From a virus (lineage: Duplodnaviria > Caudoviricetes), in the IMG/VR virus record IMGVR_UViG_3300032030_000037, positions 36,101-100,100 of that record: DNA of 64,000 bases, one strand, 5' to 3'. The notes beneath the pieces were generated by a model. That model did not search any database and was not told the origin of the DNA. It worked only from the letters and a program-made list of their open reading frames with translations. Position numbers and translations under genes: made by a program. Positions 14,119-56,016 of this stretch are shown piece after piece (the first letter of the stretch is position 1; every line of letters starts with the position of its first letter).

Positions 14119-14961
14119 TTATTTTAATGCTTTAATGTTAATTTTCGGTTTCAAGATAAATTCTACGGATGCACAGGGGTCGAGGTTCTCTAAGATTTCA
14201 TCCTTAGGTTTATACGCCATAGGAGATTCATCTAGAGTTTCCCGACAGACAGAAGTTGAGTAGATTCCCTTCATACTTTTCTCAAAGTCCTTCAGAGATA
14301 TCTTAGACTTAGCCGCCGACCTAGACATTAATCTTCCTGCACCATGAGGGGCGCTGAAGTTTGTGTCGGGATTTCCTTTCCCTCGACAGACCGCAACTCC
14401 ATCTCTCATATTAAGTGGGAGAAGGAAAATCTCATTCTTCTTCGCCGAAACCGCACCCTTTCGTATAATTGGAGTGGGACCAGAAAAGTCAATGTAGTTA
14501 TGTCGTGTGGTGATTCGTTCTTTCTCTAGGCCCCCAGTAAGTTTTGTATAGACGTCAAGAATCCTGTCCATAATTATCTTATGATTCCAAGATGCATATG
14601 ACATACAAACTACCATGTCCGTTAGATAGCCACGAAGATTCTCACCACTAAGATAGCCTAAGTGGATATTTTCTTCTTTCCATTTCTTAAGCTCCTCATC
14701 TATAGTAGGCTTAATCTGATGCTTGTCTATCCCAGGCCTTGACTTCACCTCTTCCTGGATGGCTCTCTGAATATCCTTCGGCACCTTATCACACATAGCC
14801 TGAGATTTCCAGTATTTATTTACTTTCACCCCCAAGTTTCGTGAACCCGTGTGTACAGATATTCCTTGAAATTGTGTGAACGTAGGATGTGAGAACCCGA
14901 GAGGATTACTACCAAAAGAGTCCCAGGTATTCTCTCCTTCATCATACTCAATATAATGATT
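14119..14961 (-). CDS. rtcB: RtcB RNA ligase, exon 2
   Basis: NHYIE, VHTGSRNLG, HNYID, RKGA, SAPHGAGR and DESPMAYK motifs. Confidence 0.93.
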   Translation of the reverse strand, partial: NHYIEYDEGENTWDSFGSNPLGFSHPTFTQFQGISVHTGSRNLGVKVNKYWKSQAMCDKVPKDIQRAIQEEVKSRPGIDKHQIKPTIDEELKKWKEENIHLGYLSGENLRGYLTDMVVCMSYASWNHKIIMDRILDVYTKLTGGLEKERITTRHNYIDFSGPTPIIRKGAVSAKKNEIFLLPLNMRDGVAVCRGKGNPDTNFSAPHGAGRLMSRSAAKSKISLKDFEKSMKGIYSTSVCRETLDESPMAYKPKDEILENLDPCASVEFILKPKINIKALK

Positions 14962-15885
14962 CAATTTGTTACGCTGTATTTTTAAAATATTCTATTCTTA
15001 TAACTAGACCTCCATGGCCTAGCTGGAACTGTTCTAGTCCAACTCTGTAATTCTACAGCAGAATTATATTTTCTATCTATGTATATTTCTGGATTTCCAA
15101 AGATATACAATAGCTTTGCTAAGTCTACTGCAGCTTCATTAGTTACTACAATATTATATACATTATCTCTTTTATTTCTAGTAGCTGACTTTTGCAAGTT
15201 CATTCTTTTATCTAAAAATTCAAGAAACTTTGTTTTCATATCTTCGCTTTTTGTAACTAGCCCTATAAATGGAACACTGCTTTTGCTAATGCCCAAGCTC
15301 CCGTCCCCATCTATAACTCCTCTCCAAAAGTCTACCTCACTATATTCAACTATTGGGGTGCTAGCTAGACTTGTTTTATCTTTCTTAGGATATCCAGAGT
15401 TTATTAGATCTGTCCTAAAATCTAACATTCCATCAACAAAACTATAACTAGTATAACTTTCGCTAAAATTTGTAGATCTAGTTCTAATTCTAATATGTGA
15501 TTCTGGATATAAATTATGTAATTTTTCTACTATATCTTTGTCTTTTTCACTAACCTCTAAGGTAACTCTTCCTCTATTTCTTACTTTAGCAAGATACAAG
15601 TTTCCGTCAGTTATTAAAAGTCCAAAGACATAGCTTTTTATTTTATCTAACACAAATCTTCCCTCCTTTTATATAATACAGCGACTAGGTCATTTCTGCC
15701 TAGTTCTGCAAGTTCGTATTCCTTGCAGTTCGGAGCACACCTTCAGCTTTTACCGCTGCTCAAGTCCCTCTGCTCTCTACGGGGGTATTTAAACCTTCCC
15801 TCGGAGATTGGCATCACAGCCTCTCCCGATATGGACGAGTTTTACAATGAACGATTATTAGTCGTTCTGGAGGCAATCAAGTCTC
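14962..15885 (-). mobile_element. Group I intron (924 nt) in rtcB
   Basis: Exon GGAGGU pairs with intron GCCUCC (P1, U-G at the splice site). P3 gucc/ggac. P7 region guagagagca / aaggugugcucc. Terminal G precedes AAU CAU. Splicing restores GTLGGG-NHYIE in frame (453 aa). Confidence 0.9.
14982..15653 (-). CDS. Intron-encoded double-motif LAGLIDADG homing endonuclease
   Basis: YVFGLLITDG and FWRGVIDGDG motifs. The ORF is looped out by the cgctgtatt/aatacagcg stem. GTG start with aggagggg upstream. Confidence 0.9.
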   Translation of the reverse strand: MLDKIKSYVFGLLITDGNLYLAKVRNRGRVTLEVSEKDKDIVEKLHNLYPESHIRIRTRSTNFSESYTSYSFVDGMLDFRTDLINSGYPKKDKTSLASTPIVEYSEVDFWRGVIDGDGSLGISKSSVPFIGLVTKSEDMKTKFLEFLDKRMNLQKSATRNKRDNVYNIVVTNEAAVDLAKLLYIFGNPEIYIDRKYNSAVELQSWTRTVPARPWRSSYKNRIF

Positions 15886-16404
15886 ACCTCCACCTAAAGT
15901 TCCAATACTTTTATAGAATGTTGCCAGATCCATTCCAATTCCACTACACCATCTCTTCAAGTCATCCTCATCATTGAAATCAGGAATCCAAGTGAGTCCG
16001 TGAGTGTTCTGATATGCTTTCTGAAGTTCTGACCTGAGATAGGCTAGAAATTCTTTAACATCAAAACACCGAGAGGGTTGGATTTCGTCGCCCGTTGGAA
16101 TTGCCTTCCTGACACGATGTTCAAATAATGCATAATCCTTCGGGTCTAATGGTTTATCGAGGAATAGCATTGAAACACTACACCCTATATCAACCCCTAT
16201 ATAGTCGGGATCTATGTATTCGCCAAGTTCAGAGGTAAATCCAATACAGATTCCACTCCCCGCATGAACATCCGGCATAATCCTAACTTTAAGTCCCTTC
16301 CACTCTGGAGCTTTAATTGTATCATAAACCTGCTGAAGTGCGGCAGGTTCAATATTATCTGTAAAAATTTTACAGTCTAATCCATTATTATTTATTTCTT
16401 TCAT
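15886..16404 (-). CDS. rtcB: RtcB RNA ligase, exon 1
   Basis: RIMPDVHAGSGICIGFT, GVDIGC and SIGTLGGG motifs. Confidence 0.93.
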
Positions 16405-52361: not shown

Positions 52362-53105
52362 ATGAAAGATAGAGATTTATATTTCTGTGGGGATATTCAC
52401 GGAGATTGGAAAGAATTTATATGGAAAGCACTAAAGCAGTACCAAATTAGGGATGCTGATATTGGAATTCTAGGTGATTTTGGTATTGGATTTGATAAAA
52501 CAATGCCTGATCTTTACCGGTGGGCTGAAAAAAGATTAGAAGCTGCCGATGTAACCATTTATGCAATTAGGGGAAACCATGATGACCCTAGTTATTTTAC
52601 AGATACAGAAAAATATTCATATCCAAGACTACGTTTTCTTGAAGATCATAAAGTCTATGAAATTTGTGGAAGAAAAATCTATACCATTGGAGGCGCTTGT
52701 TCTAATGATATCGGATGGAGACTAGCTATGAATGAGACTCTTGCATCGAAGGGAAAAGATAGAAGAGTGTGGTGGCCTGGAGAAGATGTAATTCAAAAAC
52801 GAAACGACCTTCCCGATAAAGTTGACATTATTATCTCTCACACAGCCCCACTTGCTTTTCTCCCAGTCATTAGAAAATTTCCTGAAACACCAGAGTGGCA
52901 ATATGATAAAATTTTAGAGGAGCGAAGATACTTAGATTATGCTTTGAAAGAAATTAATGCTGACTACTGGTATTACGGACATTTTCATGATCATTATTCT
53001 GGTTCATATGGAGATCTTCTGTATCGCGGTCTTGGAATTATGGAATTTATAGAAGCAGGAAATATAATCAATAATAATCCACAAGGAGAAGATGGAGTCG
53101 AATGA
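52362..53105 (+). CDS. Calcineurin-like metallophosphoesterase
   Basis: GDIHG, LGDFG, RGNHD, SHTAP, GHFH. Confidence 0.9.
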   Translation: MKDRDLYFCGDIHGDWKEFIWKALKQYQIRDADIGILGDFGIGFDKTMPDLYRWAEKRLEAADVTIYAIRGNHDDPSYFTDTEKYSYPRLRFLEDHKVYEICGRKIYTIGGACSNDIGWRLAMNETLASKGKDRRVWWPGEDVIQKRNDLPDKVDIIISHTAPLAFLPVIRKFPETPEWQYDKILEERRYLDYALKEINADYWYYGHFHDHYSGSYGDLLYRGLGIMEFIEAGNIINNNPQGEDGVE

Positions 53106-53437
53106 ATTAGATATAAATGTAACAATTGTAAATAAAATACTAGCAAAAATAATAGAATCTGATCCAGACCTAATCGGAATAATAAAAAATCTCTTAAAGA
53201 AAGGTCTAGAGAAAAGCAGCTATTATGGCGAAGAAAAATTAGAAGACTTAGTAGCATCAAAAACAGACTTACAGATGCTTGATGCTAGATTACATGGGCT
53301 TGAGCATAAACTAGGGATGGATACTTGGACTCCATATGAATATAACAGTATGTCTATTCTAGAAAGAGTTAAAGCACTAGAACGAGTCGTAGATAATTTA
53401 GAAATCCAAATAAACGATTTAACTAATAGCTTAGAAT

Positions 53438-54109
53438 ATGGAAAATACAGTAATAGATTCAATTAATATCAATAGCGCTAATTTAAATAGCGACGGGACT
53501 ATAACACTTACTGCCGACAACGGAACAACTACTTGTTCCAGTAGCAGTAGTATAACAATAGATCCCAGTGCTTTTAGTAATAGTTTAAACTATGCTGGAA
53601 CCTTGACGAATCTAGGCAACGGTATAGTATGTAACACTGCAACTGGAAACTATTATTCAACAACTGCCTCATGTGGTTTCGATTCGTGGGACGTTGCAGA
53701 AAAATCAGAAACTTTGGAAGATGTAGTAAAGAAAAGACTTGAAGATCTAATAGAGGATGAAGATGAGATGATGCCTCTTATTAAAAATTATCTCAGAAAA
53801 TATCTTGAAAAAGTTATGGATAATCCAGATGAGATAATTAAAAGAGATGAAGAGATTAAAAAACAAAAGGAAGAGATTAAAGATCTTAAGGAACAGGTAA
53901 AATCATTGAAAGAAGAGATAAGAGTTCTACAGTCATACAAGCCTATTGGACTTGGGGACTATGATTATATAGGAACGAATCTCCCGGGAATTACAGTAAC
54001 AACGGCTGATTCGTCCTGGTACTATGATTCAAATGCCGTTACGTCTTCTTCCTCATTTACTGAAGTATATAAAAATAGCTGTCAAAACACTACTTCTACA
54101 ATCGGCTGA
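53438..54109 (+). CDS. Hypothetical coiled-coil protein with Ser/Thr-rich termini
   Basis: Heptad segment EIKKQKEEIKDLKEQVKSLKEEI. Confidence 0.6.
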   Translation: MENTVIDSININSANLNSDGTITLTADNGTTTCSSSSSITIDPSAFSNSLNYAGTLTNLGNGIVCNTATGNYYSTTASCGFDSWDVAEKSETLEDVVKKRLEDLIEDEDEMMPLIKNYLRKYLEKVMDNPDEIIKRDEEIKKQKEEIKDLKEQVKSLKEEIRVLQSYKPIGLGDYDYIGTNLPGITVTTADSSWYYDSNAVTSSSSFTEVYKNSCQNTTSTIG

Positions 54110-54112
54110 AAA

Positions 54113-54123
54113 CCTTATATATG
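54113..54123 (+). promoter_or_regulatory. CCTTATATATG promoter motif heading the ribozyme-containing transcript
   Basis: Perfect motif followed by a 5' hairpin (aaagagactaga/tctagtctcttt). Confidence 0.65.
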
Positions 54124-54189
54124 TAGAAATACCTAAAGAGACTAGAGAACGATTTCTAGTCTCTTTAATCTTCTAATGTGCTTGAAACG

Positions 54190-54757
54190 AATAGTACTAC
54201 GGATTATACAATATACGGAAGGTGCATACACGGAATTGTATAATTAAGATCTGGGAGTGATTAGTCCAGCGTCGTCTGAGCGACGTTAAAATATGTATGG
54301 CCAAAAGCTTAATAGAGTTGTTGTTAGCTCTACGCGTAAAGCGGCTTTTGGTATAGGCTTAGAGCGGAAAGAATTAAATATGGTTTTTACGACATAGCCA
54401 CGCCGGGTGGCCCCATTGTGAGGGCACGCCTGGTGGGCAATATAACAATTTTAAATAATTTTATAAATCGAAGAGATTTATAAACCTGAGACATTGAGAG
54501 TATCTGATGAAGATATTTCAATAGAGATGTTTCAAAACGCAGTAACCATGTATACGTGGTGAACTGAGAAAAATAAACTAGATACTGTAAATCTAGGTTA
54601 TGTAGTATCAGAGCGTTAATATAGTTCGGAAAAGTATTACAGACAAGTACCACTAGGAAATTTAAGGAAAGTTAACTTTCTTTATAAGGATATATTAAAT
54701 TATAAAATAAGAATGAGTAAATCCCGAGGAGGGAAGAAAATGAAATCCTAGTACTAT
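54190..54757 (+). ncRNA. Large (~570 nt) structured RNA domain
   Basis: No credible ORF. Ends pair (atagtacta-c-ggatt / aatcctagtactat), enclosing at least 8 hairpins. Confidence 0.55.
54270..54396 (+). ncRNA. Pistol-like self-cleaving ribozyme (variant with inserted stem)
   Basis: P1 cgtcg/cgacg. Loop tctgag pseudoknots with cttaga (54358-63). ttaaaata linker, 'tagg-PK-gcg' core, P2 tatg/cata, wobble-rich P3. Predicted cut G54391/A54392. Confidence 0.7.
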
Positions 54758-54867
54758 ATTGAAAGTCTTTGGGAGAGAAGCCTAAAGCAAAACTATATAA
54801 ACGGAAAGGTATAATTTAAATAATAACCTTTCCATTAATTTTTCAAGAAACCAATTTTATAACAAAT

Positions 54868-55050
54868 ATGCAGATTCTTAAAGCACTTGCGGCTATCATT
54901 GCTGTTCCTACAGCTATTGTTGCTGGAATCAATGAGACCGCCAAACTCGCCGATGCATCAAGAAAATCCGGCGGGTTATTCCGAGAGATCGGAAAAGAAA
55001 TCAAATCAGTCTTCAATACTGCCAAATCAATTGGCAAGAAAAATGACTAG
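54868..55050 (+). CDS. Small hydrophobic/amphipathic protein (60 aa) between the ribozymes
   Basis: ATG after an A-rich leader; overlaps the next ORF. Confidence 0.55.
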   Translation: MQILKALAAIIAVPTAIVAGINETAKLADASRKSGGLFREIGKEIKSVFNTAKSIGKKND

Positions 55051-55174
55051 AGAGGAAAAGAGTCCGGATGGATCTTACAAAAAGATCGACCTAGGATCTC
55101 CACGAGACTGGGCATGGGCAACTTTACTGTTTACCATAGCACTCAAAGTCTTTCAGTCATTATTTAAAGACTAG
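55043..55174 (+). CDS. Small membrane peptide (43 aa) between the ribozymes
   Basis: MTREEKSPDG...WAWATLLFTIALKVFQSLFKD. Confidence 0.5.
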   Translation: MTREEKSPDGSYKKIDLGSPRDWAWATLLFTIALKVFQSLFKD

Positions 55175-55201
55175 AATTCCTAGTGGGCCCTTTAAGACCC
55201 A

Positions 55202-55279
55202 CTCTGTAGTACGTTTAATACGTGCCTGATGAGACCAGAGACATTCCCCTAAAAAGGAATGCCAAAGGTCGAAACAGAG
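55202..55279 (+). ncRNA. Type III hammerhead ribozyme
   Basis: Stem III ctctgt/acagag, GUA cleavage triplet (cut after A55208), stem I gtacgt/acgtgc, core CTGATGA (55226-32), stem II gacc/ggtc extended by cattcc/ggaatg, then GAAA. Confidence 0.92.
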
Positions 55280-55348
55280 AATAAAAACCGGCTACTAATG
55301 TTAGCAAACGTTTATATTCAACATGAATAAACTATTAACAAACATAGC

Positions 55349-55591
55349 ATGAAAGAAGAAAAGAAAAAATTTAACTGGAAGAAGGCCGGAATTGTAGCAG
55401 CATTAGCAGCTGTTGCAGCCGGTTCATTTCTTCTTGGGGTGCTAGCCGGAAAGGAGCACCCAGAAAAAGTGCTTGAGTTGGAGAACCGATCACTCAGGCG
55501 AGAGCTTAAGAAAACCCAGAATCGGGTTGAGAGCCTATCGTATAGGCTGGGCAAGGTCGCCCAACTACTTGAGACCTACAGAAAAGAGTAG
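55349..55591 (+). CDS. Membrane-anchored coiled-coil protein
   Basis: TM segment followed by heptads. Confidence 0.6.
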   Translation: MKEEKKKFNWKKAGIVAALAAVAAGSFLLGVLAGKEHPEKVLELENRSLRRELKKTQNRVESLSYRLGKVAQLLETYRKE

Positions 55592-55596
55592 CCGCT

Positions 55597-55980
55597 ATGA
55601 ATCAGGTAATTTTAGTGAACGGAAAGGCGGTTACGGGGATGTTCGATTACGCCCCAGGAAATGGAATGATGTATGAAGGAGAGTATAATATCTCTGAGCT
55701 CAAAAACATCATCTTTACAAAAAATTCAATCGACAATCCTGCAGTTGAAAGCCTTCTGCGGGAAAAGTATGGCCTTGGGAAAAATCTTCCTGAGGTTCAA
55801 TCTAAGTACAATCCGAAGACGAAGGGATTTGAAAAAGATCTTCGCACATATATTGATGCAGGAGATATTGTATATTCCGTTGTGACTCCGGATGGTGAGA
55901 AAATTCATCGTGGAAAACTTAGCGGTGATACATTGCCGATAGATCTGAAGATTAAGGTCCTCAAATATATCGGAATCTAA
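55597..55980 (+). CDS. Hypothetical protein
   Basis: 127-aa ORF in the same operon. Confidence 0.6.
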   Translation: MNQVILVNGKAVTGMFDYAPGNGMMYEGEYNISELKNIIFTKNSIDNPAVESLLREKYGLGKNLPEVQSKYNPKTKGFEKDLRTYIDAGDIVYSVVTPDGEKIHRGKLSGDTLPIDLKIKVLKYIGI

Positions 55981-56016
55981 TAATTGTTTAACTCTTAATA
56001 CCCAACAAAAGAAAGT

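Follow-up and report, generated by a model that had tools for sequence, protein, structure and literature searches.

What an unconventional pistol-like element does in the genome of a rumen phage is the question raised by the locus studied here. The window that we analysed, a stretch of 64,000 nucleotides, is part of a 100.1-kb IMG/VR record estimated by CheckV to be about 27% complete. Its source is an uncultured jumbo phage of the cattle and sheep rumen, and the record carries the beta subunit of a multisubunit RNA polymerase, with a distant likeness to the AR9/PBS1-type and staphylococcal jumbo-phage versions. At 54270-54396, the initial annotation had recognised a pistol core that departs from the canonical form by a branched insertion and by a GA in place of a GU cleavage dinucleotide. 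This finding is real, and that first reading was largely right. Comparative analysis and RNA contigs further suggest a scenario which we consider rather probable, namely that one rewired pistol cuts two sites and that the intervening RNA is circularised, both cleavage and ligation being predicted.

The pistol core and its rewired P2

The sequence of the core was as described, and all the catalytic-core positions of a pistol are present (features lie on the plus strand unless otherwise stated). The P1 hairpin (54270-74/54281-85), whose UCG/CGA core is invariant, carries the loop UCUGAG (54275-80), which is the 5' strand of the pseudoknot. It is followed by the A-rich linker UUAAAAUA (54286-93), of which AAAA is invariant, and by the 5' strand of P2, termed X (54294-99). 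Beyond the insert come the catalytic core AUAGG (54353-57), where G54356 corresponds to purine32 and G54357 to G33, then the 3' strand of the pseudoknot, CUUAGA (54358-63), and the GCG made up of G40, C41 and G42 (54364-66), with AUAGG and GCG both forming invariant columns. The P3 hairpin (54367-90), AU- and GU-rich in the subgroup of the window, leads directly to site 1, the predicted scissile G/A at 54391-54392, where R/ACA is conserved among homologs and where the junction of a circular contig is located (see below). Essential roles in pistols have been assigned to purine32, the G33-C41 pair, G40 and G42 (PMC6154101; for the core including the A-rich linker, also PMC4604425), and the positions named essential in PMC6154101 are all invariant in our alignment A1.

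This pistol is poorly recognised by the existing model. The Rfam Pistol family (RF02679) gave 20.3 bits against a gathering cut-off of 34.5 (E-value of 0.35 on 901 nt and of 0.009 on the 100-kb record), and its alignment placed the pseudoknot strand inside the insert, so that the model match is borderline on its own. No Rfam family reached its gathering threshold over the whole window and, around the element, the E-value mode returned the sub-threshold Pistol match and noise, and nothing else. The warning that a standard covariance model might miss the element was thus well founded: at the gathering threshold, standard annotation would overlook this pistol.

Homologs were sought by pattern scans of viral, metagenome and genome collections, which yielded 12 distinct real relatives on rumen phage contigs. 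They comprise near-identical copies (L055 and L060), a close subgroup (L045, L046, L052 and L062), a second subgroup (L002, equivalent to L043; L048/L054; L053) and three divergent homologs, namely L078 (in a complete 353-kb phage genome), L041 (on a 204-kb contig) and L058. The element was found in no isolate genome, as the scan of genome contigs with the core pattern gave only chance matches in GC-rich coding sequence; most matches to the looser viral and metagenome patterns were likewise of this kind, and blastn of 54100-54900 against GenBank phages gave no match.

Covariation among homologs had been put forward in the initial annotation as a check of the core, and it indeed speaks in its favour. 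In the 12-sequence alignment, pairing is complete (100% of cells) for both P1 and the pseudoknot, with two compensatory pairs each, the pseudoknot occurring in four sequence versions, while the G33-C41 pair, purine32, G40 and G42 are invariant. The catalytic-core positions are thereby constant across lineages that differ almost everywhere else. The ribozyme structure as a whole is 93% paired in these 12 sequences, versus 28-41% when the partners are slid, and none of 500 shuffles reached the covariation score observed in the 12 homologs for P1, the pseudoknot, X/X' and the two upstream helices Pa and P0 described below.

Another non-standard pistol was observed on a GC-rich viral contig (L019:2106-2260, plus strand), outside the large-RNA family considered here. 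It has extra hairpins within the linker, a strong P3, a G/A after P3 and a P2 of only 3 bp. Insert-bearing pistols with G/A sites may be more widespread. P3 itself is present in all homologs, and its sequences in L078, L041 and L019 are unrelated and well paired.

The one part of the core that had to be revised is P2. The helix implied by the initial annotation (UAUG/CAUA, 54296-99 with 54393-96) is not conserved: it can be formed only in the subgroup of the window and is impossible in the L002, L048, L053 and L078 lineages. The partner of 54294-99 is found upstream, at 54225-30 (X'), about 70 nt before X. All six X/X' pairs form in 12 of 13 sequences, and five of the six in the remaining one, always in the same register; five different helix sequences occupy this register, with compensatory change at all six pairs. 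The closing stem of the insert, considered earlier as a replacement for P2, was dropped after X/X' had been found. X' sits inside the loop of helix Pa (54204-12/54235-43; 97% paired, 8 of 9 pairs compensatory), between AAGGU (54219-23) and GGA (54232-34), where AAGGT and GG are invariant columns. A further hairpin, P0 (54251-69), adjoins P1 and has a conserved loop (54256-54264) and compensatory change at 5 of 5 pairs. With its partner located upstream, P2 does not anchor the stretch that lies 3' of the scissile bond, and the two-nucleotide junction from P3 to P2 known from published pistols is not kept. One idea is that G54222-U54223 could pair with A54392-C54393.

The branched insert and the large non-coding RNA

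The 53-nt branched insertion claimed at 54300-54352, between P2 and the catalytic core, proved to be conserved and covarying. Its three-way junction is built from a closing stem S (54300-08/54344-52; compensatory at 6 of 9 pairs), hairpin A (54313-32; 5 of 6 pairs), which bears a conserved 10-nt loop region (54318-27), and hairpin B (54333-43; 2 of 3 pairs). In the nine sequences with an insert of the window type, 97.6% of the cells of these helices are paired, and differently built inserts occupy the same position in L041, L058 and L078. The covariation seen in the helices of both the core and the insert indicates that the pistol core and its branched insert are real and under selection.

The function first proposed for this insert, an allosteric or protein-binding module, is less in keeping with the comparative evidence, in which the insert looks more like an arm that docks the substrate RNA on its 3' side. 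The loop of hairpin A is complementary, over 54321-26, to the motif UAACAA at 54443-48, which we propose as a tether for the 3' side of site 1. Every homolog has a complement of the loop downstream of site 1, and loop and complement change together (7 bp in L041, 6 nt downstream; 6 bp in L058; 7 bp in L062). When the AU-rich tails were shuffled sequence by sequence, loop-tail complementarity did not reach significance, and it is the position and the co-variation of the complements that suggest docking. Between the cut and the first UAACAA lies a GC-rich, strain-specific hairpin (54397-54440), in place of which other homologs have different hairpins or none; this variability suggests a spacer arm of variable nature.

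A conserved non-coding RNA of about 710 nt (approximately 54130-54846) has the ribozyme as its 5' domain. Conservation extends from a promoter-like motif, CCTTATATATG (54113-54123), to about 54865. This motif lies upstream of the RNA gene in every homolog and recurs ahead of the next unit downstream in L048 and L058; it is probably a promoter of the phage's own RNA polymerase. In a 9-homolog alignment, the 5' leader (54139-54199) consists of a variable hairpin (54139-54166) followed by the conserved TGAAACG (54183-89) and TAGTACTA (54192-99). The latter is palindromic and occurs again at 54750-57, within the RNA predicted to be excised; a helix between both copies could hold the ribozyme fragment on the circle, the pairing having been drawn by eye and not being clear in all homologs.

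The predicted excised RNA (54392-54845) is a structured molecule of 454 nt, found as a closed cycle in RNA contigs, with a multi-helix core at about 54536-54610 and a hairpin at 54766-54788. This 3' part of the large RNA has covarying helices of its own, with compensatory change at 23 of 29 consensus pairs. The 710-nt RNA showed no Rfam family, tRNA or tmRNA, and the plus strand of 54110-54867 has no open reading frame of at least 40 codons other than a 50-codon frame (54024-54176) that overlaps its first bases. The window and several homologs, among them L041 and L062, have an open reading frame for a small hydrophobic (membrane) protein immediately 3' of the RNA gene (54868-55050 in the window).

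A type-III hammerhead-like element with a long stem II was also observed further downstream, at 55201-55280 (29.3 bits against a gathering threshold of 48.5; E-value of 8e-5 in a 141-nt search). Its predicted cut, after A55208, falls just downstream of the membrane-protein reading frame and, together with a cut at the second site described below, would delimit a 363-nt mRNA piece, likewise with ligatable ends.

RNA contigs, the second site and the fate of the intervening RNA

As to expression, the stretch was present in 14 RNA runs from at least 10 studies of cattle and sheep gut metatranscriptomes. Contigs of four runs were placed on 53000-56000; these being assembled contigs and not raw reads, RNA ends, strand and end chemistry are not readable from them. 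In sheep run X6, a 484-nt contig matched the window without a mismatch from 54535 to 54845 and then from 54392 to 54564, which amounts to a 454-nt cycle with a 30-nt overlap, one A at the junction being assignable to either side. In bovine run X4, from another study and another strain, a 483-nt contig closes as a 453-nt cycle, and the flank of site 2 in this strain is identical to that of site 1. The joined form thus exists in the RNA libraries of two rumen metatranscriptome studies, and its junction starts at A54392 (or C54393), as expected from the G/A scissile site claimed in the initial annotation. Neither the DNA record of the phage nor viral contigs contained the junction sequence; the head-to-tail junction was seen in RNA contigs and was absent from the DNA template searched, with a tandem multimer or a template switch by reverse transcriptase left by the contigs as possible sources of it.

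Upstream of site 1, the 5' contigs start at 54132 or 54136, which in three studies is a weak hint of the transcript start, and they end at 54368 (X1 and X4) or 54301 (X2). No contig bridged 54391/2: positions 54369-54403 are uncovered in X1 and X4, and X6 has no 5' fragment. The same contigs bear on whether the pistol might be permuted, with the G/U at 54222/3, which immediately precedes the upstream P2 strand, as the real cut. The invariant AAGGU is indeed placed like G53-U54 with respect to the 3' strand of P2, but the strand before this G/U has no P3 partner, and AAGG/U was rejected as a scissile site because RNA contigs from three studies run unbroken over 54222/3 while the junction lies at 54392. 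We consider a permuted pistol very improbable.

The other side of the junction defines a candidate second site (54839-54846), where UUUUUC is followed by A54845/A54846. This UUUUUC can pair with the 5' strand of P3 (54367-72), sharing its register with the cis strand, which would place the cut 1 nt past the helix, as at site 1. A second UAACAA, again complementary to the loop of hairpin A, follows 14 nt 3' of site 2 (54860-65), outside the circle; the motif is found after site 2 in L002, L052 and L078 as well, and its counterpart in L041 is AACCA. Both sites share one layout, that is, a complement of the P3 5' strand, 0-3 nt, R/A and a complement of the loop, and seven lineages show this layout at the 3' end of their RNA (window, L045, L002, L052, L062, L078 and L041). 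It co-varies with P3 and the loop in divergent homologs. In L078, whose P3 is unrelated in sequence, both sites carry UAUAAA/UUUAUA along with a loop complement of 8 nt; in L041, P3 and the loop are different again, with flanks matched at both sites. Over the whole 64 kb of the window, sites 1 and 2 are the only plus-strand occurrences of the composite motif, and the minus strand has it at two chance places. In L048, L053 and L058, no site 2 could be identified. The circle sizes predicted in the homologs range from 346 to 460 nt.

This second site overlaps a terminator-like signal (54803-43), made of a hairpin just 5' of it (54803-54833), present in the subgroup of the window, and of a U-run that begins 5 nt after the hairpin. 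The locus could accordingly be read in a simpler way, in which a single cut in cis at 54391/2 yields a linear 5'-OH RNA with a 3' end made by the terminator (54803-54845), the circles being artefacts of libraries or assembly, or products of an unrelated kinase and ligase. Indeed, the hairpin and U-run resemble an intrinsic terminator, which would give a 3'-OH without a second cut; contigs cannot prove RNA ends; site 2 of the window, A/AG, does not have the G and the C of the G/AC at site 1; and the phage possesses enzymes of the RNA-repair type, namely RtcB, a metallophosphoesterase and a 2H/LigT-like protein. However, the sequence past site 2, for which a terminator has no need, repeats ACA and the loop complement and co-varies with the arms of the ribozyme. 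Moreover, 5 nt separate the hairpin from the U-run, a contig of run X2 runs through 54848, and cycles of the same size were recovered from two studies and two strains. We regard a single cut as unlikely, although it is the most probable of the rivals.

It could also be argued that nothing is cleaved by the element, which would then be a structural domain derived from a pistol, the ends at 54392 and 54845 being produced by RNases of the host or of the phage. Such a domain would account for the broken P3-GU-P2 connectivity and for the sub-threshold Rfam score, and the RNA is large and ornate, as are ROOL and GOLLD. It would hardly account for the invariance of all catalytic-core positions across lineages, for an RNA junction located exactly at the nucleotide predicted from pistol geometry, or for a second site that mimics the first, and we hold it to be quite improbable.

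From a mechanistic point of view, the two-site reading that we favour can be described as follows. The 5' strand of P3 would hold the substrate on the 5' side of the cut and the loop of the insert hairpin would hold the 3' side, while P2 would have turned into an internal clamp, making the ribozyme enzyme-like. With P2 rerouted and the insert loop pairing with a downstream motif, the substrate would be recognised via two single-stranded arms. In line with this, pistols function as two-piece enzyme and substrate constructs opened at P3, and the identity of the GU at the pistol cut is only modestly conserved (PMC4604425). We infer that both cuts are made by this one ribozyme: the first would take place in cis after P3, at G54391/A54392, and the second, following strand exchange, at A54845/A54846, 454 nt downstream. 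Pistol chemistry generates a 5'-OH and a 2',3'-cyclic phosphate (PMC4604425), and both cuts would thereby leave these two kinds of ends on the intervening RNA. The latter could then be sealed into a circle by RtcB, from the phage or otherwise from the host, or by reversal of the ribozyme reaction. Ends of this type, 5'-OH and 2',3'-cyclic phosphate, are those joined by RtcB.

A candidate sealing enzyme is encoded by the phage itself, on the minus strand of the window (14119-16404). This RtcB gene is split by an insert of about 0.9 kb that holds a LAGLIDADG endonuclease reading frame (14982-15653); the N-terminal piece (15877-16404) covers positions 14-153 of the profile and the C-terminal piece (14119-14964) positions 154-425, both in frame. 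The insert has the appearance of an intron or mobile insertion, and no intron was matched in it by Rfam. RtcB was found neither in the complete 353-kb genome behind L078 nor in the record behind L002. The case of L078, a complete genome, leaves a host ligase or ribozyme reversal as possible ways of closing the circle. Gene order around the locus is little conserved between the window and L002, as the metallophosphoesterase gene is the sole common gene and differs in orientation.

Comparison with known systems and significance

References for the canonical pistol ribozyme (RF02679) are the works of Weinberg (2015) and of Harris (2015; PMC4604425), together with the env25 structure. The element described here shares with it a P1 bearing a loop of 6 nt, a pseudoknot of 6 bp with the P2-P3 segment, the A-rich linker, purine32, the G33-C41 pair, G40 and G42, as well as a P3 hairpin immediately followed by the predicted cut, which comes after a purine. 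It differs by the upstream partner of P2 and by a cleavage dinucleotide that no longer bridges P3 and P2, by the 53-nt three-way junction between P2 and the core, by the extra helices Pa and P0, by R/A instead of G/U, by its two putative substrate sites and by its sub-threshold Rfam score. The link between P3 and P2 in pistols is a fixed two-nucleotide junction of strictly conserved length (PMC4604425), whereas the spacing from P3 to the cut varies here from 0 to 3 nt among homologs.

Pistols have already been associated with closed RNAs in metatranscriptomes. Lee et al. (bioRxiv 10.1101/2022.07.19.500677) reported pistols in viroid-like cccRNAs, one of which was a segment of a dsDNA bequatrovirus, and left DNA encoding open. 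The present system resembles these molecules in the tie between a pistol and a closed RNA and in a possible origin from a DNA phage. In those circles, however, the ribozyme lies inside and pistols have a standard profile, whereas here it lies outside and is rewired, and the DNA template is a jumbo-phage contig. Hairpin-ribozyme satellite RNAs offer another point of comparison: these are rolling-circle RNA replicons in which a ribozyme located inside the unit performs both the cleavage and the ligation of unit-length circles. Here too the ribozyme would set both ends of the unit; unlike in these satellites, the template is DNA and the ribozyme would be left behind. In the engineered Tornado system, flanking twister ribozymes generate 5'-OH and 2',3'-cyclic phosphate ends which RtcB seals into a circle. 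The same logic of ends is proposed here, but in a natural, phage-encoded system in which a single ribozyme, and not two, would serve both sites via strand exchange. Finally, the RNA is reminiscent of ROOL and GOLLD as a highly structured, phage-encoded RNA of several hundred nucleotides, although no match in sequence or structure to these was found; we know of no ribozyme domain, catalysis or circular form in ROOL or GOLLD.

A search of the literature found no pistol in which P2 pairs upstream, none with a branched insert and none that acts at two sites, absence from the searchable literature being no proof. To our knowledge, no biological role has been established since 2015 for pistols or for most of the self-cleaving ribozymes of phages. 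Considered as a whole, the locus may represent a dedicated RNA-circularising device, with a two-site pistol endonuclease, perhaps also a ligase, that acts on its own transcript, and a circle of 350-460 nt that accumulates while the ribozyme stays outside; we find the grounds for and against this full view evenly balanced. If true, this would be the first natural small self-cleaving ribozyme to act enzyme-like at two programmed sites.

Several consequences can be drawn. The pistol core appears to tolerate a rerouted P2 and a modular substrate-docking arm, which may be relevant to ribozyme engineering, both for trans-cleaving pistols and for the production of circular RNA. As standard models miss the rewired form, the finding is also relevant to homology searches. 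The circle would constitute a new large structured RNA, directly testable now. The two-site reading, if true, would also mean that a pistol ribozyme of a phage has a biological role, with a concrete product offered for it: an abundant and conserved circular RNA in the jumbo phages of the rumen.
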